A DNA stretch of 64,000 nucleotides from Candidatus Latescibacterota bacterium (GTDB taxonomy: Bacteria; Latescibacterota; UBA2968; UBA8231), in contig CBDCXV010000010.1 of assembly GCA_965223905.1 (NCBI GenBank), positions 1,152,001-1,216,000 of the forward strand, written 5' to 3'. The translations under genes and the position numbers were made by a program. This document shows positions 6,251-23,734 of the stretch, piece after piece. Numbering within the stretch: the stretch's first letter is position 1; each line of letters begins with the position of its first letter. The notes beneath the pieces are model-generated. The model was not told the origin of the DNA and did no database searches. It saw only the letters and a list, made by a program, of their open reading frames with translations.

Positions 6251-7087
6251 ATGCAAACGCAGTTCACGCGTCCCTACCGCCTAATCGAGGTCCACCCGGT
6301 CTCCGGCGCCCTCGGCGCCGAGATCAGGGGCGCCGATCTATCCCGGCCTCTCGAACCCGACCTGCTGGCGGAGATCCGCCGCGCCTTCCTCGACCACCTG
6401 GTCATCTGCTTCCGGGATCAGGAACTCACCCCTCGGGAAGAGCTCGCCTTCGCCCGGCAGATGGGCGAACCGATGCCCTATCCGCAACTCGAAGGGTTGC
6501 GGGGATTTCCCCTGATCACCGAGGTGATAAAACGGGAGCACGAGCGGGTGAATTTCGGCGGCGTCTGGCATTCGGACACCGCCTACCTCGAATCTCCACC
6601 GAAGGCGAGCCAGCTGTACGCCATCGAGGTCCCACCCCATGGCGGCGACACGATCTTCGCCAACCAGTACATCGCCTACGAAACCCTTTCGCAGGGACTC
6701 AGGGGGACGCTTGCCGGCCTGGCTGCCGTCAACACTTCCTCGAAACCGGAAATCGCAAGGACGAGGGATGATCGCCTGCGGGACAAGGGGGAAGCGCTCA
6801 AAGTGCTGAGCGCGGTGCATCCGGTCGTGCGCACCCATCCCGAGACCGGGCGCAAGGCCCTCTACGTCAACCGCGGCCATACGATCCGGTTCGAAGGGTG
6901 GACGGAGCGGGAGAGCCGGCCTTTGCTCGACTACCTGTTCGACCACCAGGTGCGCCCGGAGTTCACCTGCCGCATCCGGTGGGAAAGGGGGACCCTCATC
7001 CTCTGGGACAATCGCTGTGCCCAGCACCTGCCCCTGAATGACTACCAGGGCTTCCGGCGCCTGATGCACCGGGTGACGCTGGCTTGA
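6251..7087 (+). CDS. TauD/TfdA-family 2-oxoglutarate/Fe(II) dioxygenase
   Basis: WHSD (HxD), GGDT.FAN, HPVVRTHPETGRKALYVN, WDNRCAQH, MHRVTL. Confidence 0.93.
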   Translation: MQTQFTRPYRLIEVHPVSGALGAEIRGADLSRPLEPDLLAEIRRAFLDHLVICFRDQELTPREELAFARQMGEPMPYPQLEGLRGFPLITEVIKREHERVNFGGVWHSDTAYLESPPKASQLYAIEVPPHGGDTIFANQYIAYETLSQGLRGTLAGLAAVNTSSKPEIARTRDDRLRDKGEALKVLSAVHPVVRTHPETGRKALYVNRGHTIRFEGWTERESRPLLDYLFDHQVRPEFTCRIRWERGTLILWDNRCAQHLPLNDYQGFRRLMHRVTLA

Positions 7088-7096
7088 TGATTGCGT

Positions 7097-7336
7097 TCAA
7101 CTGACTGCGATTTCCCCCCAAGGTGGAGTGGCGACGGAACGGCGCTCCCCCTCGCGCACGTAAATCCTGGCGAGGACATCGAGGAGACCTGCTCGCCCGC
7201 CCGGCCCTGAGCTGTCACCGGCGGCCGACAGGATCGCGGGCAGGGCCTCGCCATCGGCCATGAGCAGTTCGATCTTCGTCCGCTCGGGGAACAACCGCAA
7301 GGTATCGCCAGGAGACATCGGTACGCCTTGCGACAA
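7097..7336 (-). CDS. Small hypothetical protein (79 aa) at the end of the ABC/TolC operon
   Basis: Fills the gap on the operon strand with a protein-like composition; no recognised motif. Confidence 0.4.
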   Translation of the reverse strand: MSQGVPMSPGDTLRLFPERTKIELLMADGEALPAILSAAGDSSGPGGRAGLLDVLARIYVREGERRSVATPPWGEIAVS

Positions 7337-7395
7337 CGCATCCCGGGCGAACGGGAATGCCGCCCCGACCCCGGACGGCCGCCGCCCTCGGACTC

Positions 7396-8943
7396 CTACC
7401 GCCGGCTCGCCTTGACGCTCACCACCGCGACGCCGACCACCAGCAGGATCACGCCGCCGATCAGGAGGGCATTCCGCACCAGGTCAGCCCTCGCCTTGAC
7501 CCGGATGGTGATGTCCCGCTCTTCCGCTTCAATTCGCTCGTCGCCGTCGTACCCCATCGCCTCGACGCGGACGTCGAATTCGCTCTCTCCCAGCCCGTCG
7601 GGGGGCACGAGTGTGATGCTGACCGGTTCCTTCTCGGTCGGCAGGATCCTGTCGATCGTATCCGGCCTTGCCGTGTAGCTCCAGCCGAGCGGCGGCAGCA
7701 GCACGAGGTGCACCCGCTCGACCTCCAGGGTGCCCGTATTCAGCAGGTCTACGCGCACTGTCGCTTTCTCCCCGGTTCTGATCTCCTGGTAGCGGTTGGC
7801 AACGATGCACTCGAGCGTCGCCTTTCCTCGCGGGATCAGCTGAAACACCTCGCTGCTGCCCCTGACCTCTGCGATTTTCTCCACGGGCGCCGTCTTTTCT
7901 CCGTACTCGCGGTTGAGGCCGGCAATCTGCAGGAATCCCTCCTGGTCGGTGATGAAAACGTGGAACTCGATCGTCTGGTCGACGAACCGGCGGCTGAGCT
8001 TTTCGGGAATCTGCAACTCGAGTTCCAGCTGTTGACGTGTGGCCTCCTCACTGAACTTCACCTGGGTCAGACTGGCGCCGTTGCGAGGGTCGAGGAAAGC
8101 GGGGTCGATCTCCCGGGGCAGGTTGACGAGGGCGAGGCGGAACGTCTTCTCGTCTTCCGCCAGGCGTTCGAGTATCAGGTCGTAACGCACCGTCGTGTTG
8201 AGGTCGCCTTCCTGTGAGAACTGCACCGAGTTGATCGTCGGAATGTCCTGCAGGCTCTCCCGCCGGAGCACGATGTGCATGTCCTCGAGCTCATCATTCT
8301 GCAGCCGCATCGACACGACGGCGGTTTCGCGATCCTGCAGGAGGCGGAATGTCAGGCTCCTCTCTTCCCCGAGCTTCAGCGACGGAATCCCGGTCTCGTA
8401 CGGCTCGGCCACCGTCAACCCGACGACGGACTCCAGCGACACGGTAATGTTCTGGATTTCGAGGAGCGCCGCGATCTCCGCTCTCGACTTTCCGGGGTTG
8501 AGCGACATCGCCTGGGTGATGTTGGAGGCGTTCTTCAGGGTAATGTCGACCTGCCGGTGCCCCCCGGGGGCGCGGTACTTGATCGCCTCGACCACGGAGA
8601 TGTGGGTGGCGTCGGCGAGGAAATCGAGCCGCGTGCGCTCCAGTTTGAACACCGCTTCTTCGTATTCTAGGTTCGCCTGCTCGTAGTCGCGCTTGGCTTT
8701 GTTGAGCTTGTCGAGGGTCTCGATTTTCTGCTCGTAGAGATCCTGGATGACTTCATACTCGTTCTTGCTGTTTTCCATCTCAAGCTGCTGCGAGTCGACG
8801 TCCCAGCGCGCCTGGCGCAGCTTGATGTCGTAGAGGCGCTGCTCCTTGGTGCGCAGATCCTTGGCCGCGAGCTCTGTTGTGAAGGCGGCCACCCCAAGCA
8901 CCAGCACGAGTATGGCGGCGGCACCGCGCAGGGAACCGGTCAT
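7396..8943 (-). CDS. Exported protein: signal peptide, MFP-like alpha-hairpin, Ig-like/NEW3 domains, C-terminal TM anchor (paralog B, 515 aa)
   Basis: MTGSLRGAAAILVLVLGVAAF signal; coiled coil (DLYEQKIETLDKLNKAKRDYEQA); NEW3-like LLNTGT...PPLGW....P..I..I.P.E; ends in a TM plus SRR. Confidence 0.8.
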   Translation of the reverse strand: MTGSLRGAAAILVLVLGVAAFTTELAAKDLRTKEQRLYDIKLRQARWDVDSQQLEMENSKNEYEVIQDLYEQKIETLDKLNKAKRDYEQANLEYEEAVFKLERTRLDFLADATHISVVEAIKYRAPGGHRQVDITLKNASNITQAMSLNPGKSRAEIAALLEIQNITVSLESVVGLTVAEPYETGIPSLKLGEERSLTFRLLQDRETAVVSMRLQNDELEDMHIVLRRESLQDIPTINSVQFSQEGDLNTTVRYDLILERLAEDEKTFRLALVNLPREIDPAFLDPRNGASLTQVKFSEEATRQQLELELQIPEKLSRRFVDQTIEFHVFITDQEGFLQIAGLNREYGEKTAPVEKIAEVRGSSEVFQLIPRGKATLECIVANRYQEIRTGEKATVRVDLLNTGTLEVERVHLVLLPPLGWSYTARPDTIDRILPTEKEPVSITLVPPDGLGESEFDVRVEAMGYDGDERIEAEERDITIRVKARADLVRNALLIGGVILLVVGVAVVSVKASRR

Positions 8944-10460
8944 CTTCTCGAGATCGCAACACTGGCCAGCCCGATCCCCACCACGAGCAACACCAGCAGA
9001 CCGATGAGAATCGCATGCCCGGTCAGGTTCGAGCGGGCGCCGACGCGGACGGTGATGTTCTTCTCCAGCGACTCGACGTTGAGGTTGCCGACCTGGCCCT
9101 GCGCCTCGATCCCGACTTCGTAGCTGCCGACGGCGATGTCCTCCGGCGGCTCGGCGCTTACCTCGACGAGGGTGCGTTCGTCGGGATCGAGGATTTTGAT
9201 CAACGTCGGTTTGACGGCGCTTTTCCATTCGTACGGCAGGTCTACGACGGCCTTGATATTCTGCACCGCGGCGGAACCCCGGTTGAGAAACTGCACTTGG
9301 ATATCCATGACGTCGCCGACCTCGATTTCCTGGTAGCGATTCGACACGATCACCTCGAGCTCGCCGACCCCTTTGGGAATAAGCTCCAGCTTGACGTAGT
9401 CGACGTTAAGGCGCGCAACCTCCTCTTCGGGAATCGGGTCGTCGCCGTATTTCGCCTGCAATGTATTTATCGGGCCGTACTCGGTCGGTTCTGCGACCAT
9501 GGCGAAGAAGGTCCGCGTGCGGCCGATGTATTTGGAATCGAGGTTTTCCGGGATTCGCAGACGCAGGGTCAGGGTCGTTTTCGAGGTCGTTTCGTCGAAC
9601 TTCACCTGGTTGATCTTCGCCCCCTCATCGACGAACGAATAGTCGATTCGCCGCGGCAGACCTACAGCGGCCAGGGCGAAGCTGCGCTCGTCCTCGGAGA
9701 GGCGCTCGAGGGTCAGGCCGAACCCGACTTCCGATTCGAGATCGCCCGTCTGCGAAAACTGGGACGAATTGATGCTCGGCAGGTTCTGGTCGGAGCCTTT
9801 CTTGAGAATGACCGAGCGGCGATCGGAATCGACATCGAGGTAACTCATGGCGACGACGACGGCGCTTTCATCCCTCAGGAGGCGATAGGTCAACAGTTTT
9901 CGCTCGCCGACTTCGAGCGACGGGATCAGCATCTCGTACGGCTCCCCGACGATGGGGCCGTTGCGCAGCGAGACGTAGATGTTCTCCACGGTGAGGAGTG
10001 TGCGCAGTTCCTCTTCGCTGAGCGAAGCGTCGACGAGGAGGGCGTCGCGGATGTCCGAGGCGTTCTCGAGGACGATGTCGACCATGCCCCGGCCGTCGTC
10101 CGTCTTGTACTTGCGCGCCTCGACGACGGCCAGGTGGGTGGCGTTTCTCAGCAGGTCGAGCTTCGTCTCCTCCAGCCGGATCTGCGCCGCTTCGAACCGC
10201 AGCAGCGCATCCTGGTAGCTGTTTTCCGCCAGTTCGAAGGTCTGCAGGGCCAAGTACCCGTCGTTGTAGAGGGCGCGAACCGTTTCCAGCTCCTCCCGCT
10301 GAGTCTGCAGACTGGTTCGGCTGTGTTCGAGTTGCGACAGCCGCTCGTCGAGTCTGAGCTTGCCGAGTTGCTGCTGGCGCGTCAGTTGGCCTTCGTTTGT
10401 GGCGTCGCCCGGCAACGCCAGCAAGAGCAGCGCGACAGACCAGGGGAGCGCGGCCGTCAT
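8940..10460 (-). CDS. Exported protein: signal peptide, MFP-like alpha-hairpin, Ig-like/NEW3 domains, C-terminal TM anchor (paralog A, 506 aa)
   Basis: MTAALPWSVALLLLALP signal; RALYNDGYLA hairpin tip; shares many blocks with 7396-8943 (ATH..VVEA.KY, EPYE..IPSL..GE, P.INS.QFSQ.GDL, LERL.EDE, NRYQEI); ends in a TM plus SRR; ATGA overlaps at both ends. Confidence 0.8.
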   Translation of the reverse strand: MTAALPWSVALLLLALPGDATNEGQLTRQQQLGKLRLDERLSQLEHSRTSLQTQREELETVRALYNDGYLALQTFELAENSYQDALLRFEAAQIRLEETKLDLLRNATHLAVVEARKYKTDDGRGMVDIVLENASDIRDALLVDASLSEEELRTLLTVENIYVSLRNGPIVGEPYEMLIPSLEVGERKLLTYRLLRDESAVVVAMSYLDVDSDRRSVILKKGSDQNLPSINSSQFSQTGDLESEVGFGLTLERLSEDERSFALAAVGLPRRIDYSFVDEGAKINQVKFDETTSKTTLTLRLRIPENLDSKYIGRTRTFFAMVAEPTEYGPINTLQAKYGDDPIPEEEVARLNVDYVKLELIPKGVGELEVIVSNRYQEIEVGDVMDIQVQFLNRGSAAVQNIKAVVDLPYEWKSAVKPTLIKILDPDERTLVEVSAEPPEDIAVGSYEVGIEAQGQVGNLNVESLEKNITVRVGARSNLTGHAILIGLLVLLVVGIGLASVAISRR

Positions 10461-11809
10461 TCGACGTACCCCATGAGCCGCCTCAGGCCGGCCTGGCGGC
10501 TGATGTAGGTGGCCTGGGTCACGAAGTACCGGTCCTGCTCCCTGAAGAACTGGTCGCGCACCTGCTCGAGCTTGGCTTCGTCGGCTTTGCCCTTGTCTTT
10601 CAGGAACTGGTTGATCTCGAGGCGGCGCCGGGCGATTGTGACGCGTTGCTGCTGAATTCGCTGTTCCTCCTCTGCTTCGAGCATCGATTGGAAGGCCTGG
10701 CGCACGCGCAGGTCGACGCCTGCCCGCAGGTCGCGGATCGACGCCATGATCCGCTGCAGCTTCGCCTTTTCCTTCGCTTCCTGTCCGAGGCGCGAGCCCC
10801 CCTCGAAGATCGGAATGCGCGCCTCTACCTGGGCCGTCCACTGGGCGCCTTCAGGACCCTGCGGATCCTCTTCCTCGTTCAGTTCGAAGTCCGACTCGAC
10901 GTCGACCCCCCACGTTCCGTCGTCGCGGTCGACGCGGACCCGGGCGTCCTTGCGACCGTCCTCGACGCCGGCGTCCAGCGACACGTCGGGGGAATACCGC
11001 CATGCGACTTCTCCCAGGGCGCGACGCTGCTCGTCGAGTTGTTCCTCGCGCAGGGCGAGATGCACGTCCCGCTGCAGCGCGATATCGACAGCCGCTTCCA
11101 CATCCAGCGGGAAGGGTGCGATGTCGCCGGCGAGCATTACACCCGTTCCAATCGGCTGACCGATCAGCCGCAGCAGTTCCATCCTGTTGTTGAATTGCTG
11201 CCGCACGAGCCGGTTGATCGCCAGCTCTTCGTTGAGGACGTTGAGCTCGGCGTTCAGCTTGTCCTCTTCCGACGCCAACCTTTTGTCGAAGCGGGCCTGC
11301 TGTCGTTCGAGGGCGGCCTGAAAGTTGTCCCTCGACCGGCGCCGCGACTCGATCTGCCGGTTCTGCAGCAGGATGAGATGGTAAACCTCCCACACCCGGG
11401 CCATCACCTCGTGCAGCTTGTCTTCGTACGCGAAGACGGCTTCGCGCAGGTCCGCCCTCAGCCTGATCTCGCGCCCGGCATCCGGCCCGAACTCGAACAG
11501 ACGCTGGGTGAACTGCAACCTGCTGCCCAGGCGGTCTTCGGTCCTGGCGCCCGGGCTTGCCGGGGTTCGCTGGCCGTCGTAGGTCGTCTTCAGGCTGAGG
11601 TGGGGCAGGAAACGGGAACGCACCACGACGTGGTCCCCCTGAATCTCGTCGATCCGTTCTCGCGCCTGGATCAGCTCGCGGTTGAATTCAGAGGCAGCGG
11701 CGAGCGTCTTCGCCAGCGAGAGGGATTTCCCGGTGATGGGTGGTTCCGCGGCGACGGAAACGCCCCAGAAGGACAGCAGGACTGCGGACCTGCAGAAGCA
11801 ACGCGGCAA
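10457..11809 (-). CDS. TolC-family outer-membrane efflux channel
   Basis: Signal peptide; two OEP repeats (RSRFLPHLSL...FTQRLFEFG and YSPDVSL...RIPIFEGG); ends LRRLMG. Confidence 0.88.
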   Translation of the reverse strand: MPRCFCRSAVLLSFWGVSVAAEPPITGKSLSLAKTLAAASEFNRELIQARERIDEIQGDHVVVRSRFLPHLSLKTTYDGQRTPASPGARTEDRLGSRLQFTQRLFEFGPDAGREIRLRADLREAVFAYEDKLHEVMARVWEVYHLILLQNRQIESRRRSRDNFQAALERQQARFDKRLASEEDKLNAELNVLNEELAINRLVRQQFNNRMELLRLIGQPIGTGVMLAGDIAPFPLDVEAAVDIALQRDVHLALREEQLDEQRRALGEVAWRYSPDVSLDAGVEDGRKDARVRVDRDDGTWGVDVESDFELNEEEDPQGPEGAQWTAQVEARIPIFEGGSRLGQEAKEKAKLQRIMASIRDLRAGVDLRVRQAFQSMLEAEEEQRIQQQRVTIARRRLEINQFLKDKGKADEAKLEQVRDQFFREQDRYFVTQATYISRQAGLRRLMGYVE

Positions 11810-11828
11810 TCGGAGGATGCTGGCGATT

Positions 11829-13241
11829 TCAGTTTATCTCGCAGCGGAGGAAGGACAGGTAGGCGCCCATGAAAAGGAAGACGTTCCACAGAGCGAGCAG
11901 CAGGATGTCCAGCTGCACGAGGCCGAGGCGGTCGCTGAACGGCATGTAGGAGAACTCGAACCGGGGATAGTCGCTGAGGTCGACGGCGAACTCTTGTTGC
12001 TCGGTGAAATAGATCACTTTCGCGCCCTCTCGCTGCTGCTCCGCCATCCACTTGAATAACGCTTCCTGCTTTTTTTGGGTGTATTCCTGCCAGGTGAGGC
12101 TGTAGCCTTCAAGGGCCTCGACGAAGCGCCTCTCCTGCTCGATGCCGGTGGCGGTCAGATCGCAGGCGGCGAGGTTGAAAGAGGTCAGCGGTGAAATGCG
12201 GGCGGCAAATCCCGACCAGCGCGTCTGCGCCTGCACGCCGGAGGCGTACGCCTCGTCCAGTTTCTTCAGCTCCTCCTCCATTTTCTCACTTTCGATCATC
12301 ATCTTCTCCCGGAACCCGGAATTCTCCCAGACATCTTCCACGCCGGTGCGCTCCTGCTCCTCTTTGGCTTGCTCTTCCATCCTCCGCTGCTGGATCAATC
12401 TCATCTCCTTCTGTTCGCGGTCGACGCTTTCCCGCGCCGGAATCGGCATCAGCTGCGTGGCCGCGTACGGCGCCATGTTGGGAATGGCGAGAATGAGGGT
12501 GACCCAGACGAGCAGCAGCACTGTGATGGAGGTTGACGCAGTCTGGGTTCGGCACGACACCAGTATCCCCAGCGAGTACATCGCCGCGATGTAGAGCAGG
12601 GCAATCCCGAACAGGCCCGCAATGCTCAGCGCATCCTCGGGCGCCGGGTCTGTTTCCGCCATCAGCAAGGCCACCAGCAACCCGGCGAGGAAGGCGATTG
12701 CAAACGGGCCGATGAGGGCGAGAAACCCGCCCAGCCACTTTCCGAGAATGACCCGGTCGCGCGGGATGGAGTACGACATCAGCAGCATCAGCACCCCGCT
12801 TTCGCGCTCGCCCGAGACGGCGTCGTAGGCAAACGCCAGCGCCAACAGGCTCATGATGACGCCGACGATGAACACGAAGTCGACGTCGGGAAAAAGCGCC
12901 GCCACGGCGTTCTCTTGGGCAACTTCCTCGAACTCGAGGCGGTTGCGCTGTACCTTGACCCTTTCTGTAAGGTCTGCGGCCACCCCCCTGACCAGGATGT
13001 TCATCGCGTTCAACGGCCGCTCGACCGTAATGTCATCGACATCCCATGGGCTGGTGACCTGCAACAGCTCGTTGCGGTGCATCGTCCTGTTCATGTGGTA
13101 GGTCGACGATGCCTCGGCGAAGTCCCGGGTCGTCAGACCGATGCTCAGGAGAAACACCACCAGGCAGACGATGCAGGCGATGGCGAATCGCAGCGACAAC
13201 ATCTGATCGAGCAGCTCCCTGCGGGCGACGTGGAAGAGCAT
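11829..13241 (-). CDS. ABC-2-type transporter permease with large periplasmic loops
   Basis: VARRELL, DFVFIVGVIMSLLALAFAYDAVSGERESGVL.LLMS...R..VILGKWLG, RISP. Confidence 0.9.
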   Translation of the reverse strand: MLFHVARRELLDQMLSLRFAIACIVCLVVFLLSIGLTTRDFAEASSTYHMNRTMHRNELLQVTSPWDVDDITVERPLNAMNILVRGVAADLTERVKVQRNRLEFEEVAQENAVAALFPDVDFVFIVGVIMSLLALAFAYDAVSGERESGVLMLLMSYSIPRDRVILGKWLGGFLALIGPFAIAFLAGLLVALLMAETDPAPEDALSIAGLFGIALLYIAAMYSLGILVSCRTQTASTSITVLLLVWVTLILAIPNMAPYAATQLMPIPARESVDREQKEMRLIQQRRMEEQAKEEQERTGVEDVWENSGFREKMMIESEKMEEELKKLDEAYASGVQAQTRWSGFAARISPLTSFNLAACDLTATGIEQERRFVEALEGYSLTWQEYTQKKQEALFKWMAEQQREGAKVIYFTEQQEFAVDLSDYPRFEFSYMPFSDRLGLVQLDILLLALWNVFLFMGAYLSFLRCEIN

Positions 13242-13250
13242 GGCGGGCCT

Positions 13251-14624
13251 TCAGGTCACGTCGTAGCGCAGGAAACAGAGGTAGGATGCCATGAAGAAAA
13301 CCACGTTGTAGATCGCCAGCAGCAGGATATCTGTCAGCGCGGCGTCGAGGCTGTCGGACAGGCCTTCCGCAACCATGTCGAAGCGCGGCAGGTCTTCGAT
13401 GCTGAACCAGTCCTGATTTTTGACACGCCGTCCATTCGAATCCCAGTCGACTTTCCGGTAGATCTCGTTCAGGTATTTCTGCGCGCTCTCCTTGAAGCGC
13501 TGGTCAGCGTGGGCAAACTCCTCCGCCAGGGCCGGCCCGGTGCCGGCCAGCCGGGTCGCGGCGAACAGGTAAGTGGCCGATGGCGACAGACGCGCCAGGT
13601 TCTGGGTGACGCCGACCTGCAGGCTCAGCTTGTCCCGGTAGAACTCCTCCAGCATCTCGCGCCGCCTGTCTTTCTCTTCGCGGAGCTCTTCCCGCTTCTT
13701 CGGGTCGAGGTTTCCCCGGTTGCGCAAGCTCTCCTCGACGAGCCGATACCGTGTGCCCAGCGCCTTGATCTCTGCGTCGATCACCTTGCGGCTCGGCACC
13801 GGTGCGGCGAGCCGGGCGACGACCGGGGCGAGGTTGGGCACCACGAGAATCCAGGCGATCCACACCATCAGCGAAAACAGCAGGGCGGTGGCGCTGCGGT
13901 GGGTGAGGACCGAGATCATCAGTCCGAGGGTGAAGAAGCAGGAGATGTAGAGGAGCGACACGAGGACGATCGCCGCGAATCGGGACGTGCCTTCGCCGCC
14001 GAGAGGCAGGGCGCCGGCAATGTAGACGTAGGCGAAGCCGGCGAGCGCCGCGACGGCGAAGGGAGCGGCGATCGACAGGTAGCCGCCGATCCACTTGCCG
14101 AACAGGACCACATCTCTCGGCACTGCGTTCGACATCAACAGTTTCAGACTGCCCTGCTCCTTTTCGCCGCACACCGAGTCGAACACGAACAGCAGCGCCA
14201 GCAGGCTGATGACGAGGGACACGACATAGGCGAAGTCGGGTGTCTGGAAAATATCGAACAAGAGGTTCCTGCTCAGGCGGTCTTCGCCGCTGCTCCACCA
14301 GGCCCGGGTCTTCGACTGCGTCGGCAGCATGGCGTCGAGCCCTTTGGCCAGGATTCCGAGAACCTTGGGCTGGCGCACGCCGGTCAGGCCGGTCTGCTGA
14401 AACTCGCTGAACTGTTTGTCTGGGTCTTCGATCCCGTCTATGGCGGTGAGGTTGTCGCGCTCCGTGTTGACTTCGGTCGTGTACGACTGGAATCTCGCCC
14501 GGTAATCGTTGGTCATCAGGAATACCGACAGCAGCACGAGACAGAAGAGCAGCACGTGGGTGATCATGAAGCGGAAGCTGAGAACGTTGCTGACGATCTC
14601 TCGTTTGATGATCAGTGACAGCAT
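13251..14624 (-). CDS. ABC-2-type transporter permease (paralog)
   Basis: MLSLIIKREI, DFAYVVSLVISLLALLFVFDSVCGEKEQGSLKLLMSN.VPR..VLFGKWIG, ends FLRYDVT. Confidence 0.9.
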   Translation of the reverse strand: MLSLIIKREIVSNVLSFRFMITHVLLFCLVLLSVFLMTNDYRARFQSYTTEVNTERDNLTAIDGIEDPDKQFSEFQQTGLTGVRQPKVLGILAKGLDAMLPTQSKTRAWWSSGEDRLSRNLLFDIFQTPDFAYVVSLVISLLALLFVFDSVCGEKEQGSLKLLMSNAVPRDVVLFGKWIGGYLSIAAPFAVAALAGFAYVYIAGALPLGGEGTSRFAAIVLVSLLYISCFFTLGLMISVLTHRSATALLFSLMVWIAWILVVPNLAPVVARLAAPVPSRKVIDAEIKALGTRYRLVEESLRNRGNLDPKKREELREEKDRRREMLEEFYRDKLSLQVGVTQNLARLSPSATYLFAATRLAGTGPALAEEFAHADQRFKESAQKYLNEIYRKVDWDSNGRRVKNQDWFSIEDLPRFDMVAEGLSDSLDAALTDILLLAIYNVVFFMASYLCFLRYDVT

Positions 14625-14643
14625 GGGGCAGCTTTCACCCGCT

Positions 14644-16023
14644 TCAGAACAGGAAGAACCCGTAGGTTTCCTGGGTCCGCATGTCGGGATAGCTGCGCGT
14701 CCACTGGCTCCAGTTGACATGCGCCCGGTAGCCGCGCTGAATGCGGATGCCCCACAGCGAGCCCGGCTTCGGGTGGGGAATCTCCGGCTCGTATGAGAGC
14801 CCCGTCTGTCCGAACAGGAGCTTGTACTCGACGGACCAGTATTCCTCCCCTACGAAGGCTGCCGCTTCGGATTCTGCCGTCCAGGAGTAGTCGTATTCCT
14901 GCCAGTTCGGCAGCGTCGAGCAGCCGTCGGTGATTACCCCCAGGGAGTTGACGGTTACTCTGCAGGTATTCTTCTGGTCGCGGTCGATGTCGAAGAAAAC
15001 CTGGAACAGGTCCTGCAGGGGCTCATCGGTCTGATCGCGCTCGGTAGTCGACACGATGAGGCTTTCCGGGTGTGCCTCCTCGAAGCGGGCTCCGAAGTAG
15101 AGCGCCGCTTCCGTTCTCAGGATGGCGACATCGCTGACATGCTCCGACAGTTGCGCGGCGCTGTGTGTGCCCCAGGAATAGAAGGGCCCTGTCCTCGCGG
15201 CCCGATCCCAGACGGAATCGTCCAGGCGGCCATCGATCACCGGGGCCTTCTCGACCGCGGGGATGTCGAGCAGCCAGCCGCTTCGGCGCCAGATGTCAAT
15301 CGCTTCATCCACGTGTTCATTGTCGTAGAGGAAACGCCCGTACGCGAAGTTCGCTTTCTTGTCCTCCGGAGCGAAGGAGAGCGCCGTCTTGTAGATGGAA
15401 TCGGCCGCTGCCAGCGATCCCTTGAGCGCAGCGCCTCGAGCCTCCTTCAGCCAGGCGCTCACTTTCTCCGCGACGATGATCCTCGCTTCGAGACTGGAGT
15501 CCCGGTGCCCGTCGTCCAGGTGTTCTCGCGCGCTGGCGACGAGCCTCTCCTCCTGGGGCTCGGTCAGCTTGTCGCGAATCAGGTGGAGCGCCCGGAAAAC
15601 CCTGGCGCAAACGTCCCCTTCCTCATCGCCCGTGGCCTGCAGGATTTCATCGGCGAAATCCGCTCGCTTCAGGATGCCCAGCTCGTGGGCGATACGGGCG
15701 CGCACAGCCGCATCGGGATCGCTCACAAAGTGTGAACGCAAGGCCGCGCTCAGGCGCTCGTCTTCGAGCCGCATCAGCAGACCGGTCAGCACCTCCGTCA
15801 GCTCTACGCGCACCTCTGTGCGGGTGTCTTCTTCAAAAGCGGCGAGCAGGTCGGGAATCGCCTCCCCCTTGGCGAGCAGCAGCTCCTGCTTCGCCATTTC
15901 GAGATCTTCACCGCGTTGCCCAAGCCCGTCGATCAGGTCGTCTGTCGAGGGGCCGCAGTTCGCCAGGCAGAGGATCGCCAGCATGGCCAGCGCCCTCGAT
16001 CGCGCCCTGAAAATCGCTGTCAC
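14644..16023 (-). CDS. Lipoprotein with HEAT repeats, TPR and a CBM9-like sugar-binding domain
   Basis: Lipobox LANC; HEAT (SDPDAAVRARIAHELG); TPR (YKTALSFAPEDKKANFAYG); CBM9-like APVIDGRLDDSVW...ALYFGARF...WSVEYKL. Confidence 0.7.
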   Translation of the reverse strand: MTAIFRARSRALAMLAILCLANCGPSTDDLIDGLGQRGEDLEMAKQELLLAKGEAIPDLLAAFEEDTRTEVRVELTEVLTGLLMRLEDERLSAALRSHFVSDPDAAVRARIAHELGILKRADFADEILQATGDEEGDVCARVFRALHLIRDKLTEPQEERLVASAREHLDDGHRDSSLEARIIVAEKVSAWLKEARGAALKGSLAAADSIYKTALSFAPEDKKANFAYGRFLYDNEHVDEAIDIWRRSGWLLDIPAVEKAPVIDGRLDDSVWDRAARTGPFYSWGTHSAAQLSEHVSDVAILRTEAALYFGARFEEAHPESLIVSTTERDQTDEPLQDLFQVFFDIDRDQKNTCRVTVNSLGVITDGCSTLPNWQEYDYSWTAESEAAAFVGEEYWSVEYKLLFGQTGLSYEPEIPHPKPGSLWGIRIQRGYRAHVNWSQWTRSYPDMRTQETYGFFLF

Positions 16024-16033
16024 TACAGTCGCC

Positions 16034-16756
16034 TCAGGCCGCCCGCTCGGCCGGCTGGGTCACGTACTCGACGTAGATCTTCTCCAGGTCCTGTTGCTCG
16101 AGCTCTTCGCGGGTAAACTCTTTCACCAGATGGCCCTCGACCATGATGCCGATGCGGTCGGCGATCGCCTTGGCGCGAAAGATGTCGTGTGTGGTCATCC
16201 AGATCACCTTGTTTTCGGAACGCAGTTCGGAAAGCAGATCGAGAAACTCCGCGCCCGATTTCGGATCGAGCCCCGAGGTCGGCTCGTCGAGGAGGATGAC
16301 CTCGGCGTTTTTCATGATGGCGATGGCGATACCCAACTTTTGCCGCATCCCCTTGGAGAACCCCTTCACACGGCGCTGAAAGGCGTCCTGCTGCAGACCG
16401 ACCCGTTCCATTACATGTCGATAGTCGGCATCGGTGGCATCTTTGCGTCCACCCAGTTTGGTGAAGAAGTCGAGGTTCTGGCGCGCGGTGAAGTTGCCGT
16501 AAAGCATGACGTTTTCCGACACGTAGGCCACGTGTTTCTTCGCCTCGAGCGGGTCTCTGGTGACGTCGATACCGCAGATCTTCACCGTGCCCTCGGTCGG
16601 CTCGGTGAAGCCGAGGGCAACCATCAGCGTCGTGGTCTTTCCGGCGCCGTTGGCGCCGAGCATGGTGAAGATCTCGCCTGGCTCGACCGTGACGTTGAGG
16701 TTGTTGACGGCGTGAACGTCCCCGTAGTGTTTGGTCATTCCGATGATTTCGAGCAT
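16034..16756 (-). CDS. ABC transporter ATP-binding protein
   Basis: Walker A GANGAGKTT, signature FSKGMRQK, Walker B ILLDEPTSGLDP, TTH switch. Confidence 0.95.
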   Translation of the reverse strand: MLEIIGMTKHYGDVHAVNNLNVTVEPGEIFTMLGANGAGKTTTLMVALGFTEPTEGTVKICGIDVTRDPLEAKKHVAYVSENVMLYGNFTARQNLDFFTKLGGRKDATDADYRHVMERVGLQQDAFQRRVKGFSKGMRQKLGIAIAIMKNAEVILLDEPTSGLDPKSGAEFLDLLSELRSENKVIWMTTHDIFRAKAIADRIGIMVEGHLVKEFTREELEQQDLEKIYVEYVTQPAERAA

Positions 16757-16762
16757 CTGTAC

Positions 16763-17215
16763 CTATTCGCTTTCTCGCCCCCCCGGGGGTCGTTCCGAGA
16801 ACGTATTGGATATGGCGAATGTTGAACAGGTGTTTTGGACCGACTTCACAGGCGTGGGTGATGCCCGGGCCGGGACGGACTCCAACCGGTACGCGGCGAT
16901 CTTGGCCAACAGCATCTTGCGCGTGATCCCGAGCCGGGTGGCCGCACGCGTGCGGCTATGGCCCTTTTCCGCAAAGGGCCTCGGCGATCGCCTGCCGTTC
17001 GACGACGGCGAGGCGTTCGGCAAGGCTCCCCGCATGCGGGACTTTGCTGACGGATGGCGCAGACGGGGCGGCAGGTCTTCCCCGCTGACCTGCAGGCCGT
17101 TGCAGAGGATGGCGGCGCCCCGGATGACGTTCTCCAGTTCGCGCACGTTTCCCGGCCAGGCATTCCGCTGCGGGAGGTCCTTGGCACCGGGGGTGACGGC
17201 CTCCACCGGCTTCAT
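16763..17215 (-). pseudogene. C-terminal remnant of a sigma-54 enhancer-binding protein (AAA lid + Fis-type HTH)
   Basis: WPGNVRELENVI and SRTRAATRLGITRKMLLAKI are present, but no Walker A, GAFTGA loop or receiver domain lies upstream. Confidence 0.75.
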
Positions 17216-17289
17216 CTATTCGGGGGGCTACATCCCGACAGCAACAGGCCGCTCCGCTGCCGTTGCCGCACCTTCTCGAGGCGTTCGGT

Positions 17290-17472
17290 TCAGTTGCGAC
17301 TGGGCGGGTCGATCTCGATGAGGGGGGAGTCGGGGCCTTTCTCCTCCTCCTCCTCCTCGCGGCGGCGTCGGGAGAACGGCGCCAGGACGCGCACCGCCAC
17401 CCAGCCGGCGCAGAACCCGGCCACGAGCAGCGCCGCTCCAGTCTGCCAGTTCTCGGTCAGGAAGGCGGCCAC
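17290..17472 (-). CDS. Small single-TM protein downstream of feoB
   Basis: 60 aa, GTG start; WQTGAALLVAGFCAGWVAVRVL TM, then RRRREEEEEE and PLIEID; position typical of FeoB-associated small membrane proteins. Confidence 0.6.
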   Translation of the reverse strand: MAAFLTENWQTGAALLVAGFCAGWVAVRVLAPFSRRRREEEEEEKGPDSPLIEIDPPSRN

Positions 17473-17490
17473 AGTTTCTTAGCCGGGCGT

Positions 17491-19683
17491 TTACCCCAAC
17501 CCCAGCCACAGGCCGCCGCGGTAGGTCGCGAGAGCCCCGAGGTATGCCAGCAGGGTCATGTAGGCGAAGGTCAGCAGCGGCCACTTCCAGGATCCGGACT
17601 CCCGCTTTATCACCGCCAGCGTCGACATGCATTGGGCGCAGAGCGCGAAGAAGACCATGATCGACAGGGCGACGGAGATACCGATAGCCGGACTCCCGTC
17701 GGCGCGCCTGGCCGCTTGCAGGGCATGGCTCAGGTCTTCGGAGGTTTCGTCCTGATCCCCTCCGAGGCTGTAGATCGTTCCCAGCACCGACACGATCACC
17801 TCGCGCGCCGGGAAGGAGGCCAGGGTCGCCATGCCTATGCGCCAGTCCCACCCCAGGGGGGCGACGACCGGCTCGACGAACTGGCCCGCCTGGCCGAGAT
17901 AGCTGACTTCCAGCAGGTGGGCGGCCTGGCGGCGTTCGATATCCTGGATCTCCTGGGCCGCGGTCGCGCCCAGGCGCTCCCTCTCGTACTGCTGCACGAC
18001 CTCGCCGGGCCGCGGGAAATAGGCAAGCGCCCACATGACGATGGTGGTCGCGAGGATGATGCTGCCGGCGCGCAGGACGAAAGCCTTGCTGCTGTGGTAG
18101 ACCCGCAGGGCGACGGTGCGCGGCGCCGGCAATTTGTACGACGGCATCTCGAGCAGAAAGGGGGGCGGATCCCCCTTCAGCAAGGTCCCCTTGAGCAGCC
18201 AGGCGACCGGGACGGCGACCGCGGCCCCGACGCAGTACATGGCGAACAGGGTCAGTCCCTGCAGGCCGATCCAGCTGCCGAGGAGGGCGCGGTCCGGGAT
18301 GAAGGCGCCGATGAAGAGGACGTAAACCGGCAGCCGTGCCGAGCAGCTCATCAGCGGCGCCACCATCATCGTCGTCAGGCGATCGCGCCGGTCCTCCACG
18401 GTGCGCGTCGCCATCACTCCGGGAACGGCGCAGGCAAAGCTGGAAAGCAGCGGCAGGAACGACTTTCCCGACAGCCCGCAGCGGCTCAGCAGCCGGTCCA
18501 TCAGCAGGGCGGCGCGCGCCATGTAGCCGCAATCCTCGAGCACGGAGATGAACAGGAACAGGATGGCGATCTGTGGCAGAAAGATCACCACGCCGCCGAC
18601 TCCGGCTACGACCCCGTCGACAATCAGGCTGTGAAGCGGGCCGGGGGCCATCGCCGCGGAGATGGCGGCGCCCAGGCCCGAGAACAGCGTGTCGATGGCG
18701 TCCATGACCGGCACCGCCCAGGCGAAGATCGCCTGGAACACGAGCGCACTGAGGAGGGCGAACACCGCCACGCCGGCGACCCGGTGCATGAGGACGCGGT
18801 CGATTCTGTCGGAACGGCTCGGGAGCAACCGTCCCCCCTGAATCACCGAGTCCTCGAGTACCCGCTCGATCCATGCATAGCGGACCTCGGTCTCGAGCGC
18901 GGCGAGCGGGCCCGCGGAGCCGACCTCGCCTCTCATTCGTTCCAGACGGGTGTTGATGCCTCCTCCCAGTGAGGCGCCGAGGCGCTGTTCGATGACCCCG
19001 CCCGCGTCGACGAGGGCGCGAAACGCCTCGACCCGGGACAGGGAGCGCTCGCGGCCACCCGCGGCCACGGGGAGCCCCGCGAGCGCCTGTGCCTGCTCGC
19101 TCAGGAGCTCGGGGAACTCCGGCAGGTTCGGGTGCGGTTGCTCCGCGGTGTTCAGAACCGCCTCCAGGGCCTGTTTCAGGGCCCGCAAGCCCTGGCGCCG
19201 CCTCGCGGAGATCGGAACGACCGGCACCCCGAGGCGGGCGGACAGGACACTGGCGTTGACCTCGACGCCGCGGCGCCGGGCGATGTCGGTCATGTTGAGG
19301 GCGATGACGATCGGAGTGCCGACCTCGAGCAGCTGCGAGACCAGGTAGAGATTGCGGCGCAGGTTGCTGGCGTCGACGATGGCGAGAACGAGATCGACCT
19401 CGGGAGCGCCGGCCTGCTGGCCGAGAAGGAGGTCGACGGCGATGAGCTGGTCCGGGGCGTGAGCGGCGAGGCTGTAGGTTCCCGGCAGATCGATCAATTC
19501 CGCGGTGGCCCCCCCGCTCAACGAGAGGGTGCCGCTCATGTGCTCGACGGTCACACCAGGGTAGTTGCCGACGTGCTGCGAGAGCCCGGTGAGGGCGTTG
19601 AACAGGGTGGTCTTGCCGGTGTTGGGGTTGCCGATCAGGGCGATCGAGGGCGCCGGCCCGCCCCCGGGTGATGCTGCGGTCAT
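17491..19683 (-). CDS. feoB: Ferrous iron transporter B
   Basis: GNPNTGKTTLFNALTG, VGNYPGVTVE, DLPGTYSL, LEDCGYMARAA, FACAVPG.MATR, SCSARLPVY. Confidence 0.97.
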   Translation of the reverse strand: MTAASPGGGPAPSIALIGNPNTGKTTLFNALTGLSQHVGNYPGVTVEHMSGTLSLSGGATAELIDLPGTYSLAAHAPDQLIAVDLLLGQQAGAPEVDLVLAIVDASNLRRNLYLVSQLLEVGTPIVIALNMTDIARRRGVEVNASVLSARLGVPVVPISARRRQGLRALKQALEAVLNTAEQPHPNLPEFPELLSEQAQALAGLPVAAGGRERSLSRVEAFRALVDAGGVIEQRLGASLGGGINTRLERMRGEVGSAGPLAALETEVRYAWIERVLEDSVIQGGRLLPSRSDRIDRVLMHRVAGVAVFALLSALVFQAIFAWAVPVMDAIDTLFSGLGAAISAAMAPGPLHSLIVDGVVAGVGGVVIFLPQIAILFLFISVLEDCGYMARAALLMDRLLSRCGLSGKSFLPLLSSFACAVPGVMATRTVEDRRDRLTTMMVAPLMSCSARLPVYVLFIGAFIPDRALLGSWIGLQGLTLFAMYCVGAAVAVPVAWLLKGTLLKGDPPPFLLEMPSYKLPAPRTVALRVYHSSKAFVLRAGSIILATTIVMWALAYFPRPGEVVQQYERERLGATAAQEIQDIERRQAAHLLEVSYLGQAGQFVEPVVAPLGWDWRIGMATLASFPAREVIVSVLGTIYSLGGDQDETSEDLSHALQAARRADGSPAIGISVALSIMVFFALCAQCMSTLAVIKRESGSWKWPLLTFAYMTLLAYLGALATYRGGLWLGLG

Positions 19684-19713
19684 TCCTGATTGCCGCGCGG
19701 TGGCCGGGTATAG

Positions 19714-20019
19714 CTACGTCGCCGCGGGATGGGCGGGCCTGCTCGAGGAAACCGCCCGGTCCAGGGTGCGCACGCGAATGGCGGAGGCGTCTTTCCGGCG
19801 CATGGCGACGCGCCCTTCTCCTACCTGAAGGACGATGCGGCTGCCGCTTCGAATGACGCGAACGCGCACTCCGGGAACCAGACCGATTTCGCGGAGCCGC
19901 GTCTCGACCGAGGTATTGCAGGGGGCTTCGACCACCTCGGCTTCGGCATGAAGACCGCATTCCGACAGATTGGTGATCCCCGCGTCCTGCCCGTTTCGGG
20001 AGCTTCCGTTTACGTTCAT
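19714..20019 (-). CDS. feoA: Ferrous iron transport protein A
   Basis: RLREIGLVPGVRVRV...VALR-like FeoA SH3 pattern; directly upstream of feoB. Confidence 0.88.
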   Translation of the reverse strand: MNVNGSSRNGQDAGITNLSECGLHAEAEVVEAPCNTSVETRLREIGLVPGVRVRVIRSGSRIVLQVGEGRVAMRRKDASAIRVRTLDRAVSSSRPAHPAAT

Positions 20020-20052
20020 TCCATTCCTGTCGTTTCCAACCGGTGACCTGCC

Positions 20053-20107
20053 GTATGTGTGACAAACAATCTGTTTGATATGGCAAACAAATGATTGCTA
20101 TGCCTAA
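20053..20107. promoter_or_regulatory. Three tandem DtxR/TroR-like operator sites upstream of feoA
   Basis: 14-mers at 20053, 20074 and 20094 (GTATGTGTGACAAA, TTTGATATGGCAAA, ATTGCTATGCCTAA). The central one lies in a TGTTTG-N6-CAAACA palindrome. Confidence 0.6.
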
Positions 20108-20135
20108 TATAGGGGTCCCGCTCGGCGCTAGTCAA
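20106..20135 (-). promoter_or_regulatory. Sigma70-type promoter of feoAB
   Basis: TTGACT (20135-20130)-N18-TATATT (20111-20106) on the minus strand. Confidence 0.65.
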
Positions 20136-20300
20136 CCGCCTTTTTGCGGTTGTGATCCGCTGGATTTGCGCGCCTGAGCGCGCCAGTCTTAATCGCCGGG
20201 CAGGGCCCGGAACCACCTGTTCACGCATGGGCAAAAGGACGGAGGATGGATTGTCGGAAGCCGAACAGGAGCCGGGCTCCCCTTCGGGTCGAACGGCGCT

Positions 20301-21584
20301 TCAAAGGGTGGGGGGGATCTCCTTGCCCTGGGGGTCGAGCGCCCGCTCGGCCACCTGCCGGTCGATCTCGCGTTCCAGGCGCTCGTCGATGTAGTGCTCG
20401 AGGATGTCGGCCGGATCGTGCACGTGGTCGGGCCTGATCCCCAGCTCGTTGAGATAGGTCTCCCACAGCCGGTGGCCGCGCAGCAGCCGCAGCCCCTGGC
20501 TGCGGCCAAGTTCGGTCAGGCGCAGCCCGGTCGCCGTCTGCTGGAGCAGGGCGCGGCGGCGCAGGCGGCGCAGGGCGAGGCGGGCAAGCAGGGTATTGAC
20601 CGATGCCTCACCGCGCAGCTGCCGGGCGGGCCAGCGCCGGTTCTCGTCGACCTCGGCAGCCCGCACCATCGAGAGCAACAGGTGGTCCTGGGCGATACTG
20701 ACCGACAGCCGGCACCGCTGCCAGAGGCGCGCCAACAGTCCCTGCCGCGGCGCGAGGAACACCGACAAGGCGAAGGCCGCGCCGAGGAGCACCACGATGG
20801 CACCGGCGATCGAGCTGTTCCAGATGCCGGCCGCGTAGTAGCCGCCCACGGCCGCGGCGATCCCGAACAGCACCGCAACTGCCAGCACGACCGGCAGGCG
20901 GTCGCTCCACAGGCAGGCCGCGGCGCCGGGAACGATCAGCAGGGCGACCACGAGAATGGCGCCTACGGACTCGAAGCTCGCCACGGTGGTCACCGACACC
21001 GCCCCCATCAGCAGGTAGTGGACGAGGGTGGCGTTGATGCCGACCGACAGGGCCATGGCCGGATCGAACGAGGCGATCACCAGTTCCTTGTACAGAAATC
21101 CGACGAACAGCAGGTTGAGGAGGAGGACCGAGCCGAGGATCCAGACGGGTCGCGGACCGAGATCGGTATCCCCCCAGACCAAGGTGTCCCAGGGGGTGTA
21201 GGCGATCTCTCCGTAGAGGACGCACTCCTGGTCGAGATCGACCTGCCCGGCATACGCGGAGATCAACACCACGCCGAAGGCGAACAGGGAGGTGAAGACG
21301 ATGCCGATCGAGGCGTCCTCCGGGACCTGCCAGCGGCGGTGGAAGACTTCGACGAGCAGGGTGGTGACCAGCCCGAAGGCCGCGGCGCCGGCGAACATCG
21401 GCAGGATGGCGCGGCTCCCGGAGAAAAGGAAGGCGATGGCGATCCCGGGAAGCACCGCGTGGCTCAGGGCATCGCCGAGCAGCGACATCCGGCGCAGCAC
21501 CAGGAAGGTGCCGACTAAGGCGCAGGAAGCCGCGGCGAGCGCCGCGGTCAGCAGAATGGACCACTCCCCCTGGACCGCGGTCAC
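20301..21584 (-). CDS. Mn/Zn/Fe ABC-3 permease (TroD/MntD-like) fused to a C-terminal DtxR-like domain
   Basis: LGDALSHAVLPG, SFD, FESVGAILVVA, followed by LTELG..HRLWETYL..DHVHDPA..LEH..DPQGKEIP. GTG start overlaps the upstream TGA. Confidence 0.9.
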   Translation of the reverse strand: MTAVQGEWSILLTAALAAASCALVGTFLVLRRMSLLGDALSHAVLPGIAIAFLFSGSRAILPMFAGAAAFGLVTTLLVEVFHRRWQVPEDASIGIVFTSLFAFGVVLISAYAGQVDLDQECVLYGEIAYTPWDTLVWGDTDLGPRPVWILGSVLLLNLLFVGFLYKELVIASFDPAMALSVGINATLVHYLLMGAVSVTTVASFESVGAILVVALLIVPGAAACLWSDRLPVVLAVAVLFGIAAAVGGYYAAGIWNSSIAGAIVVLLGAAFALSVFLAPRQGLLARLWQRCRLSVSIAQDHLLLSMVRAAEVDENRRWPARQLRGEASVNTLLARLALRRLRRRALLQQTATGLRLTELGRSQGLRLLRGHRLWETYLNELGIRPDHVHDPADILEHYIDERLEREIDRQVAERALDPQGKEIPPTL

Positions 21585-22915: not shown

Positions 22916-22924
22916 CGCCCCGGA

Positions 22925-23734
22925 TCACCCGCGGTAGTCCTGGACCGCCTCGGCGGCCTGCGACAGCACCGTGAGGCGGCCGCCGTAGGTCTTGTGGAGG
23001 TTCTCTTCGGAGAACACCTCCGCCGTGGGTCCGCTGGCGACGACGCGCATGTTGAGCATGATGACCCAGTCGAAGTAGCGGGTCACGGTCTGCAGGTCGT
23101 GATGCACGCAGAGAATCGTCCTGCCGAGAGCGCGCAGCTCCATCAGGATGTCGATGATCGCCTGTTCCGTGGTCGCGTCGACCCCGGCGAACGGCTCGTC
23201 CATCAGGTAGATGCGGGTGTCCTGCGCCAAGGCACGCGCCAGGAAGACGCGCTGCTGCTGGCCGCCGGACAGCTGGCTGATCTGGCGGCCGGCGAAATCC
23301 CCCATGCCGACCTTGTCGAGCGCCTCCTCGGCGGCGCGGCGGTCCTCCCTGCGCGGCCTGCGCATCCACCCCAGGCGGCCGTAGCGTCCCATGGTCACCA
23401 CCTCCAGCGCACTGATCGGGAAGTCCCAGTCGACGGACTCCCGCTGCGGCACGTACCCGACCGACCTGCGCATGCGCTCGTACGGCTTGCCGTAGATGCG
23501 CACCCAGCCCGAGGCCTTGGGAAGCAGGTCCATGATCGCCGTGATCATCGTGCTCTTGCCGGCTCCGTTTGGGCCGATGATGCCGACCAGCTGGCCTTCG
23601 GGCACGTCGAGGTCGACGTCCCAGAGCACCGGCTTGCGGTGGTAGGCGATCGTCATGTCGTGTATCTGGATCGGGATCTCGCTCGGATCGACCCCGTCCA
23701 GCAGCCGGACCGCGGGGTTGCGCGGGGTCGTCAC
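22925..23734 (-). CDS. Mn/Zn/Fe ABC transporter ATP-binding protein (TroB/MntB-like)
   Basis: GPNGAGKST, YVPQRESVDWDFP, LSGGQQQRVFLARALAQ, MDEPFAGVD, VHHDL. Confidence 0.95.
   Translation of the reverse strand: MTTPRNPAVRLLDGVDPSEIPIQIHDMTIAYHRKPVLWDVDLDVPEGQLVGIIGPNGAGKSTMITAIMDLLPKASGWVRIYGKPYERMRRSVGYVPQRESVDWDFPISALEVVTMGRYGRLGWMRRPRREDRRAAEEALDKVGMGDFAGRQISQLSGGQQQRVFLARALAQDTRIYLMDEPFAGVDATTEQAIIDILMELRALGRTILCVHHDLQTVTRYFDWVIMLNMRVVASGPTAEVFSEENLHKTYGGRLTVLSQAAEAVQDYRG

Follow-up and report, generated by a model that had tools for sequence, protein, structure and literature searches.

A candidate trans-envelope ABC-TolC system of Latescibacterota in which hairpin-bearing Ig-stalk proteins would stand in for the membrane fusion protein

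The genes described here lie in a stretch of 64,000 nucleotides, hereafter the window, from a Candidatus Latescibacterota genome (assembly GCA_965223905.1, contig CBDCXV010000010.1, positions 1,152,001 to 1,216,000); positions are counted from its first letter. Seven genes on the minus strand encode, in transcription order, an ATP-binding cassette (ABC) ATPase, a predicted lipoprotein, two ABC-2 permeases, an outer-membrane efflux protein (OEP) of the TolC family, and two paralogous exported proteins, denoted as A and B (Table 1). A previous sequence-only reading of the window had described these genes as a tight operon devoid of a membrane fusion protein (MFP) gene and had proposed that the two paralogs bridge the ABC transporter and TolC. 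All seven open reading frames (ORFs) were found at the claimed place, 7396-16756, and the intergenic gaps of 10, 19, 9, 19, -4 and -4 nt agree with the claimed spacing of about 20 bp or less or ATGA overlaps; the stop codon of the OEP gene overlaps the start of the gene for A. The system is single-copy in the genome of the window, and its close homologues are labelled Candidatus Latescibacterota. Public DNA contigs, from a run that is possibly the source sample itself, cover the central 6.5 kb (8827-15289) with three differences and no gap.

Table 1. Operon genes and hairpin segments in the window.
Feature	Position	Strand	Basis
ABC ATPase, type V/ABC-2 class, 240 aa	16034-16756	-	Pfam ABC_tran, E 1e-31
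Predicted lipoprotein with HEAT repeats, TPR and CBM9-like C-terminal domain, 459 aa; putative optional accessory	14644-16023	-	
ABC-2 permease 1, 457 aa	13251-14624	-	Pfam PF12679 (ABC2_membrane_2) and DUF3526; NosY-like core
ABC-2 permease 2, 470 aa	11829-13241	-	Pfam PF12679 and DUF3526; 30% identity to permease 1
OEP/TolC-family outer-membrane efflux protein, 450 aa	10457-11809	-	Pfam OEP, E 5e-35; full length
Hairpin/Ig-stalk protein A, 506 aa	8940-10460	-	Pfam NEW3 (PF10633)
MFP-type alpha-hairpin of A, residues 28-107, invariant Leu64 at the tip	10140-10379	-	
Hairpin/Ig-stalk protein B, 515 aa	7396-8943	-	Pfam NEW3; same architecture as A
MFP-type alpha-hairpin of B, about residues 33-112	8608-8847	-	Placed by alignment to A

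A and B (506 and 515 aa) are 37% identical over 497 columns, which bears out the description of two exported paralogs of about 510 aa. We modelled A by AlphaFold2 on an alignment of 124 sequences and obtained a predicted local distance difference test score (pLDDT) of 93 and a predicted template modelling score (pTM) of 0.67, the latter leaving the arrangement of the domains uncertain. The model runs from a signal region, which is probably cleaved in the stalk proteins, through an alpha-hairpin with helices at residues 28-66 and 72-107 and three beta-sandwiches at residues 110-220, 227-363 and 366-474, to a C-terminal helix at residues 479-505 that is the strongest hydrophobic segment of the protein. 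The third sandwich is the NEW3 domain, which Pfam finds in all 71 family members, and UniRef names one member COG1470. A Foldseek search with the model returned only tandem immunoglobulin (Ig)-type matches (integrin legs, Hydin/ASH) at TM of about 0.2-0.3. In a wide structure search (VIA), domain 3 resembled the NEW3 domain of a sialidase (Z 11.9); this search barely probed domains 1 and 2, whose folds are not claimed as new. Counting about 58 Å for a 39-residue helix and about 35-40 Å for each of three Ig domains, we estimate a span of roughly 160 Å for the stalk. Longer members of 718-801 aa also occur (P0113-P0120 and P0121, one labelled Poribacteria), in which the first sandwich is present three times by eye, with three stretches in a profile scan, and the stalk would be longer.

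By sequence, the hairpin of A and B resembles that of MFPs. When a family profile built from 24 sequences was searched against the PDB, the best eight matches were hairpins of MexA-type adaptors of the resistance-nodulation-division (RND) pumps (E 9e-5 to 6e-4), and the best OEP in the same search was CmeC at E 2.5. Among NCBIfam adaptor models, TIGR00999, TIGR01730 and TIGR00998 matched 36, 26 and 16 of the 71 members, respectively, at E<=0.1 and all weakly, and B weakly matched three adaptor models (E 0.005-0.03). A local MFP profile, whose leave-one-out recovery of held-out MFPs was 16 of 16, matched 70 of 149 family ORFs at E<=0.01, mainly across the hairpin, and matched none of 304 permeases, 64 OEPs and 41 kinases. 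The family thus carries an adaptor-type hairpin, though no single match is strong (best E about 1e-6 to 1e-7).

The remainder of A and B departs from MFPs. The hairpin directly follows the signal peptide, beginning at residue 28 in A, so that there is no room for the N-terminal half of a lipoyl domain and the flanking lipoyl and barrel halves of true MFPs cannot exist there. Where MFPs have a beta-barrel and a membrane-proximal domain, the model of A has its three consecutive beta-sandwiches, two of which are homologous to COG1470 Ig domains, and the MFP-profile matches are centred on the hairpin. The strong hydrophobic segment of A is C-terminal, in place of the N-terminal membrane or lipid anchor of MFPs. 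Likewise, no Biotin_lipoyl or HlyD family was present among the 25 of 32 Pfam families displayed for the 71 members, in line with the absence that the sequence-only reading had proposed to check. A and B therefore fail MFP membership on three features, namely lipoyl domain, beta-barrel and N-terminal anchor. With the lipoyl and barrel halves missing and the hairpin kept, they are not MFPs, yet bear the TolC-docking part. The earlier statement that the operon has no canonical HlyD-, AcrA- or MacA-type gene stands, with the refinement that the paralogs do hold one MFP piece, the alpha-hairpin. What A and B share with MexA, AcrA, MacA, EmrA and HlyD is the sequence and fold of the hairpin, the Leu at its tip, a TolC-family neighbour and a single membrane anchor; what sets them apart, besides the three missing domains (lipoyl, beta-barrel and membrane-proximal), is the N-terminal position of the hairpin, the three Ig-like domains and the C-terminal position of the anchor. 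Known adaptor variants lose other parts: BesA lacks the hairpin and EmrA the membrane-proximal domain, with lipoyl and barrel domains kept (PMC4446572, PMC13328181; PMC numbers here and below refer to the portions of these papers that were available). The evidence supports the C-terminal anchor and MFP-type hairpin of A and B as the equipment that an envelope bridge would need.

The other products of the operon fit known families. Walker A, signature, Walker B and H-loop motifs are visible in the ATPase, and the linked ATPases across the phylum loci share 57-86% identity. Among solved structures, the permease family significantly matches NosY alone (profile E 7e-17), which also heads the Foldseek matches of a permease model with pLDDT 94.5 (AlphaFold2). 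The model combines a NosY-like core with long helical periplasmic domains, in agreement with the large periplasmic parts claimed before. A separate ATPase with catalytic motifs and a PF12679 permease with a NosY-like core place the transporter in the type V ABC group of NosY and PF12679, and permease 2 is the probable heterodimer partner of permease 1. The OEP carries two OEP repeats, and its family profile aligns with TolC over the full length (positions 26-449, E 1e-27); since the window protein scores below the NCBIfam TolC cut-off, it belongs to a divergent subfamily, and it would form a trimeric outer-membrane channel as its family does. In the lipoprotein, Pfam matches HEAT_2 and, weakly, TPR. 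The proposed HEAT and TPR assignment holds, while CBM9 had no Pfam match on the window protein and was matched in two homologues. A lipobox-like Cys is kept by eye in the seven of seven homologous N-termini displayed. The genome also encodes a second full-length HEAT/CBM9-like paralog (G000:C11:1756082-1757467), away from any such permease. Judged by their domain matches, the components of the system belong to the OEP, PF12679 ABC-2 and NEW3/COG1470 families.

To place the operon among its relatives, we surveyed 168 genomes of the phylum. The hairpin protein was found in 81 of them, 38 of which have the tandem pair, judging by the coordinates of the matches. We compared 60 phylum loci picked by hand, of which 20 come from the 38 paired genomes and 40 are single-copy matches, with 80 further loci, the best 80 of 136 from an all-species collection whose query was biased to single-copy forms; removal of 12 duplicates left 128 loci. 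The all-species loci are labelled Aminicenantes, KSB1, Bacteroidota, Ignavibacteria, Calditrichaceae, Glassbacteria and Gemmatimonadota, and rows labelled Eubacteriales or archaeon group in or beside those clades and may carry wrong labels. An OEP gene lies within 9 kb in 73 of the 128 loci and within 600 bp in 71, across at least five separate supported clades. In the 90 loci whose flanks reach 2.5 kb or more on either side, an OEP is present in 57, and a permease and an ATPase are each present in 78. Permease paralogs number one to seven per locus, with at least three matches in 47 of the 128. In two assemblies (JGI, ENA), permease and stalk are naturally fused into single proteins of 892 and 924 aa (P0237 and P0268). 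A plasmid search with a betaproteobacterial member gave two weak COG1470-type matches only.

The core of these loci consists of the hairpin/Ig protein, permease(s) and ATPase, usually with an OEP, and the A/B pair and the lipoprotein are lineage additions. The seven-gene set, which the sequence-only reading had taken as the unit, does not hold as a core: all seven types occur together in 3 of 20 paired loci, a full-length lipoprotein homologue occurs in 3 of the 20, and the pair is restricted to 38 of the 81 positive genomes. Nor do two stalk proteins hold as a general rule, as most loci elsewhere have a single hairpin protein.

Within the phylum, an orthologue of the window OEP (E<=1e-15) is present in 60 genomes, all 60 of which have the hairpin protein, and in none of the 87 genomes that lack it; related genomes in these counts are not independent. 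A standard MFP in most homologous operons had been named beforehand as a sign against the bridge, and the local MFP profile found a canonical MFP in only 2 of the 73 OEP loci (L033 and L050); that of L050 precedes an AcrB-type (RND) gene. Three further loci, without an OEP, hold MFPs that belong to a separate ABC2_membrane_6 operon. The other OEP genes in the genome of the window serve as an internal control: 9 of these 11 have a TIGR01730 match within 8.3 kb, and the nearest such match to the OEP of the operon is about 128 kb away.

The pair itself derives from one old duplication in Latescibacterota. A and B form sister clades (support 0.97 and 0.99; joint 0.999), and one A and one B, each with its own conserved tip signature, were present in all 20 paired loci examined. 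OEP, A and B are contiguous in 18 of the 20, the two exceptions being a contig break and a rearrangement associated with an insertion sequence (IS). In paired loci, the ATPase and permease genes often form a block that diverges from OEP-A-B. In one genome (G105; loci L038 and L188), an A-B pair adjoins an IS transposase, and the ATPase and a frameshifted OEP lie about 435 kb away. By eye, a sigma-70-like promoter of the form TTGAC(A)-N17 seems to be conserved 5' of the OEP in paired loci (L033, L034, L037, L040-L043, L045-L048 and L050), and the rearranged operon of the window is without this element.

Based on these features, we consider it probable that the seven genes encode a trans-envelope, ATP-driven tripartite pump of the type V ABC class, in which hairpin/Ig-stalk proteins replace the MFP. 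The inner-membrane motor would consist of the two NosY-like ABC-2 permeases, whose families are observed and whose pairing is presumed, and a dimer of the ATPase. The stalk proteins would be held by their C-terminal helix beside the permeases, a contact suggested by gene linkage and by the natural permease-stalk fusion, and would cross the periplasm on three Ig-like domains. Their N-terminal hairpins may dock tip-to-tip on the TolC-family trimer as those of AcrA or MacA do, as hairpin homology and gene linkage suggest. With one stalk gene in most lineages, the stalk would be a homo-oligomer there. Here, by analogy with hexameric adaptors on the TolC trimer, A and B with different tips would probably alternate in a 3+3 ring and engage both of the non-equivalent grooves of the channel. 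The permease paralogs most likely set specificity, and the lipoprotein would be an optional accessory. The heteromeric bridge proposed earlier thus gains an MFP-type hairpin, a membrane anchor, linkage to a dedicated OEP and a paired A/B, and its hairpin-TolC interface is inferred. Co-folding of three OEP copies (residues 140-448) with the hairpin of A (residues 33-105) gave 0.01 against a mark of 0.32 and bears neither way. A bolder form of this proposal, which we hold only tentatively, makes the system a separate machine class: an MFP hairpin grafted onto a C-terminally anchored COG1470 Ig stalk would let a NosY-like ABC drive TolC without a canonical adaptor, through an obligate A3B3 ring with groove-specialised tips and with interchangeable permeases that choose among peptide cargoes.

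Several observations weigh against a TolC-docking pump. Besides the uncertain domain arrangement of A, the fold of the hairpin matches HlyD, EmrA, AcrA and MacA with Z 10.3-11.1 but ties with F-BAR and SMC coils (Z about 10.5), so that structure alone does not discriminate. At the RLS tip motif, Leu is invariant, the Ser position is Ser, Thr or Ala, and Arg is absent; the motif is not absolute among adaptors (PMC4446572). Pfam OEP weakly matches 9 of the 71 family members, and members without the hairpin exist (P0175 and P0184). In L033 and L050, the MFP gene lies downstream of the permeases and could share the same OEP. Two loci in settings of peptide biosynthesis (below), among about 130 loci, are both without a linked OEP. 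The occurrence of the paralogs independently of tolC, which had been named as a refuting sign, is found in part: 33 of the 90 well-flanked loci have no nearby OEP, including two whole clades that keep the hairpin (10 Latescibacterota-type and 14 Ignavibacteria/Bacteroidota-type loci) and by eye bear a short aromatic N-terminal motif of their own. In nine genomes of these clades OEPs exist, none clearly dedicated, with best scores of 91-256 bits; for reference, two genomes whose OEPs are in the profile score 480-566 bits. E. coli pumps such as AcrAB work with an unlinked TolC, and the clades without a linked OEP may do likewise by using a general TolC, or may put the hairpin to another use. Three Aminicenantes-type genomes, in which the operons are scattered, have high-scoring OEPs that were considered as trans partners; these were dropped because they adjoin ordinary MFP or MacB genes.

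These clades lend themselves to a different explanation, in which the stalks are accessory periplasmic subunits of a COG1470-type inner-membrane ABC transporter, binding, chaperoning or oligomerising through the hairpin without contact to TolC, while the OEP is co-regulated and served by an MFP encoded elsewhere. It is consistent with the whole clades that retain the hairpin while lacking a linked or clearly dedicated OEP, and with the homology of classic COG1470 proteins, which occur without TolC, to domains 2-3 and the anchor. The genome of the window further encodes nine MFPs above cut-off elsewhere, some without an adjoining OEP, and close relatives of short-hairpin OEPs adjoin ordinary MFP/MacB genes in Aminicenantes. 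However, in several clades the OEP gene directly adjoins the stalk gene or overlaps it, and it was not found without a stalk gene in any of the 168 phylum genomes; in addition, the hairpin is specifically MFP-like rather than like helical domains in general. We regard this explanation as unlikely, though it is the strongest of the alternatives.

Less likely still is a mechanical machine in the manner of NosDFY, which is reportedly a mechanical transducer. Driven by ATP turnover, the stalks would gate the channel, or would transfer or insert a client of the periplasm or outer membrane (the co-encoded lipoproteins, for example), and no substrate would cross the inner membrane. Both sequence (E 7e-17) and fold leave NosY as the sole significant match of the permeases among solved structures, and in some loci genes for permease paralogs are interspersed with exported-protein arrays (HEAT-CBM9 proteins in L037; a secreted family without a name in one genus). 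On the other hand, the permeases carry large helical periplasmic domains that NosY lacks (457 vs 276 aa), a TolC channel is normally an exit duct, and the lipoprotein is missing from most loci. If the cargo comes from the periplasm, as in MacB, this mechanism overlaps with the pump proposed above.

Export of glycans, glycolipids or surface proteins by this bridge, as first suggested, is improbable: the CBM9-like domain of the lipoprotein family, the occurrence of NEW3 in glycosidases, glycosyltransferases near single-copy loci of one genus and the glycan and lipid exporters among type V ABCs (PMC8277102) point that way, but a Pfam scan of neighbour-cluster representatives found no polysaccharide-synthesis or secreted-substrate gene common across clades, the lipoprotein is confined to 3 of 20 paired loci, NEW3 here matches the Ig-like linker of a sialidase and is by position a stalk segment, and the informative contexts lean to peptides.

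Of the possible cargoes, peptides are the likeliest, amphipathic or modified and drawn from the periplasm or the outer leaflet, although we put this forward with much doubt. In relatives of Herbaspirillum sp. SJZ107, at L211:122-13435, permease, stalk and ATPase lie inside a cluster of nitroreductase, YcaO, M50, YcaO, TfuA, ThiF and aminotransferase V genes; L212 shares the upstream part. No precursor was identified in this cluster, which resembles those for azole- or thioamide-type ribosomally synthesized and post-translationally modified peptides. In a KSB1 locus (L124:6883-10717), B12 radical SAM and PqqD/SPASM radical-SAM genes lie downstream of the module. The same locus has a short Thr/Val-rich ORF without a Pfam match, a possible precursor. 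TolC-dependent ABC exporters that act on microcins are known, namely YojI and McjD (PMC7680869). In other loci (L060, L070-L086), an exported family is marked by a 'YGGFS' motif that follows the signal peptide; its members are about 270-320 aa long, several copies lie between permease paralogs in one genus, and two members scanned had no Pfam match.

Regulatory genes and motifs vary with the form of the locus. A kinase and a sigma-54 activator are encoded as a pair near many single-copy loci, and the region 5' of the OEP carries a sigma-54 motif in 10 of 24 loci of the single-copy form and in 1 of 17 of the paired form, compared with 4 of 41 intragenic control stretches. The sigma-54 linkage fits an inducible role in envelope protection or peptide export. 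In the window, a motif scan did not find a sigma-54 motif upstream of the ATPase, and a promoter scan found no sigma-70 promoter in 7000-17600. RNA data consist of two short exact pieces within the operon from one run, at a depth of about 3, and are uninformative on transcription or habitat. Just upstream of the ATPase, 16763-17215 on the minus strand holds the remnant of a sigma-54 activator, with an AAA lid and a weak Fis helix-turn-helix and its N-terminal part gone; many homologous loci are flanked by intact kinase/activator pairs. Farther upstream, FeoB/FeoA-like and Mn/Zn ABC permease-like genes were recognised by eye at 17491-24708. At the other end, a TauD-family dioxygenase gene (Pfam; 6251-7087, plus strand) is convergent with the operon.

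Among known systems, the predicted assembly YbhGFSR-TolC of E. coli comes close, combining TolC and an adaptor with two ABC-2 permeases whose ATPase is a separate protein (PMC13585988). In contrast, YbhG has the lipoyl, barrel and hairpin parts of a canonical adaptor, while the system in the window has NosY-like PF12679/DUF3526 permeases and an Ig-based adaptor. By analogy, it may work like MacAB-TolC or YbhGFSR-TolC. The inner-membrane part has a counterpart in the COG1470/NEW3 module of a Neorhizobium plasmid (NZ_CP147997, L208), in which an exported tandem Ig/NEW3 protein with a C-terminal transmembrane helix and a basic tail is encoded beside an ATPase and a PF12679 permease. The COG1470 protein of L208 is homologous to the family across domains 2-3 and the anchor (hhalign probability 96.5). 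The family has the NEW3 domain, C-terminal transmembrane helix and adjoining ATPase and PF12679 permease of such modules, an assignment made from these features and not from a COG model. The L208 module, a single example, differs in that it lacks the hairpin, has a small permease and shows no OEP annotated within 6 kb; the module type is itself uncharacterised. NosDFY has in common NosY as the nearest solved permease, a separate ATPase and a periplasmic partner, but is without TolC or a hairpin, has a smaller permease and serves in the maturation of a copper enzyme. TriABC-OpmH of Pseudomonas aeruginosa likewise uses two different adaptor genes for one pump, with an RND transporter and canonical adaptors (PMC8277102).

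An Ig-based adaptor is not described in the available portions of PMC4446572, PMC8277102, PMC13328181, PMC13585988, PMC7680869 and PMC11559062, and targeted literature searches on the NEW3, COG1470 and DUF3526 families, with most subscription journals outside their scope, returned no paper. The established ABC members of tripartite assemblies are of types IV and VII only, according to a 2021 review (PMC8277102). Taken all together, the operon and its relatives are conserved and apparently undescribed, and probably represent a tripartite ABC-adaptor-TolC design of new build. As a relative is present in a named isolate, Herbaspirillum sp. SJZ107, the family is amenable to bench study, and the naturally occurring A/B pair would allow one to test directly whether different hairpins are required at the two grooves of TolC. 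If the proposal is true, a hairpin-only Ig-stalk adaptor on a NosY-like type V ABC would make the hairpin a portable TolC-docking module, and would give a role to the widespread uncharacterised COG1470/NEW3 proteins and DUF3526 permeases.

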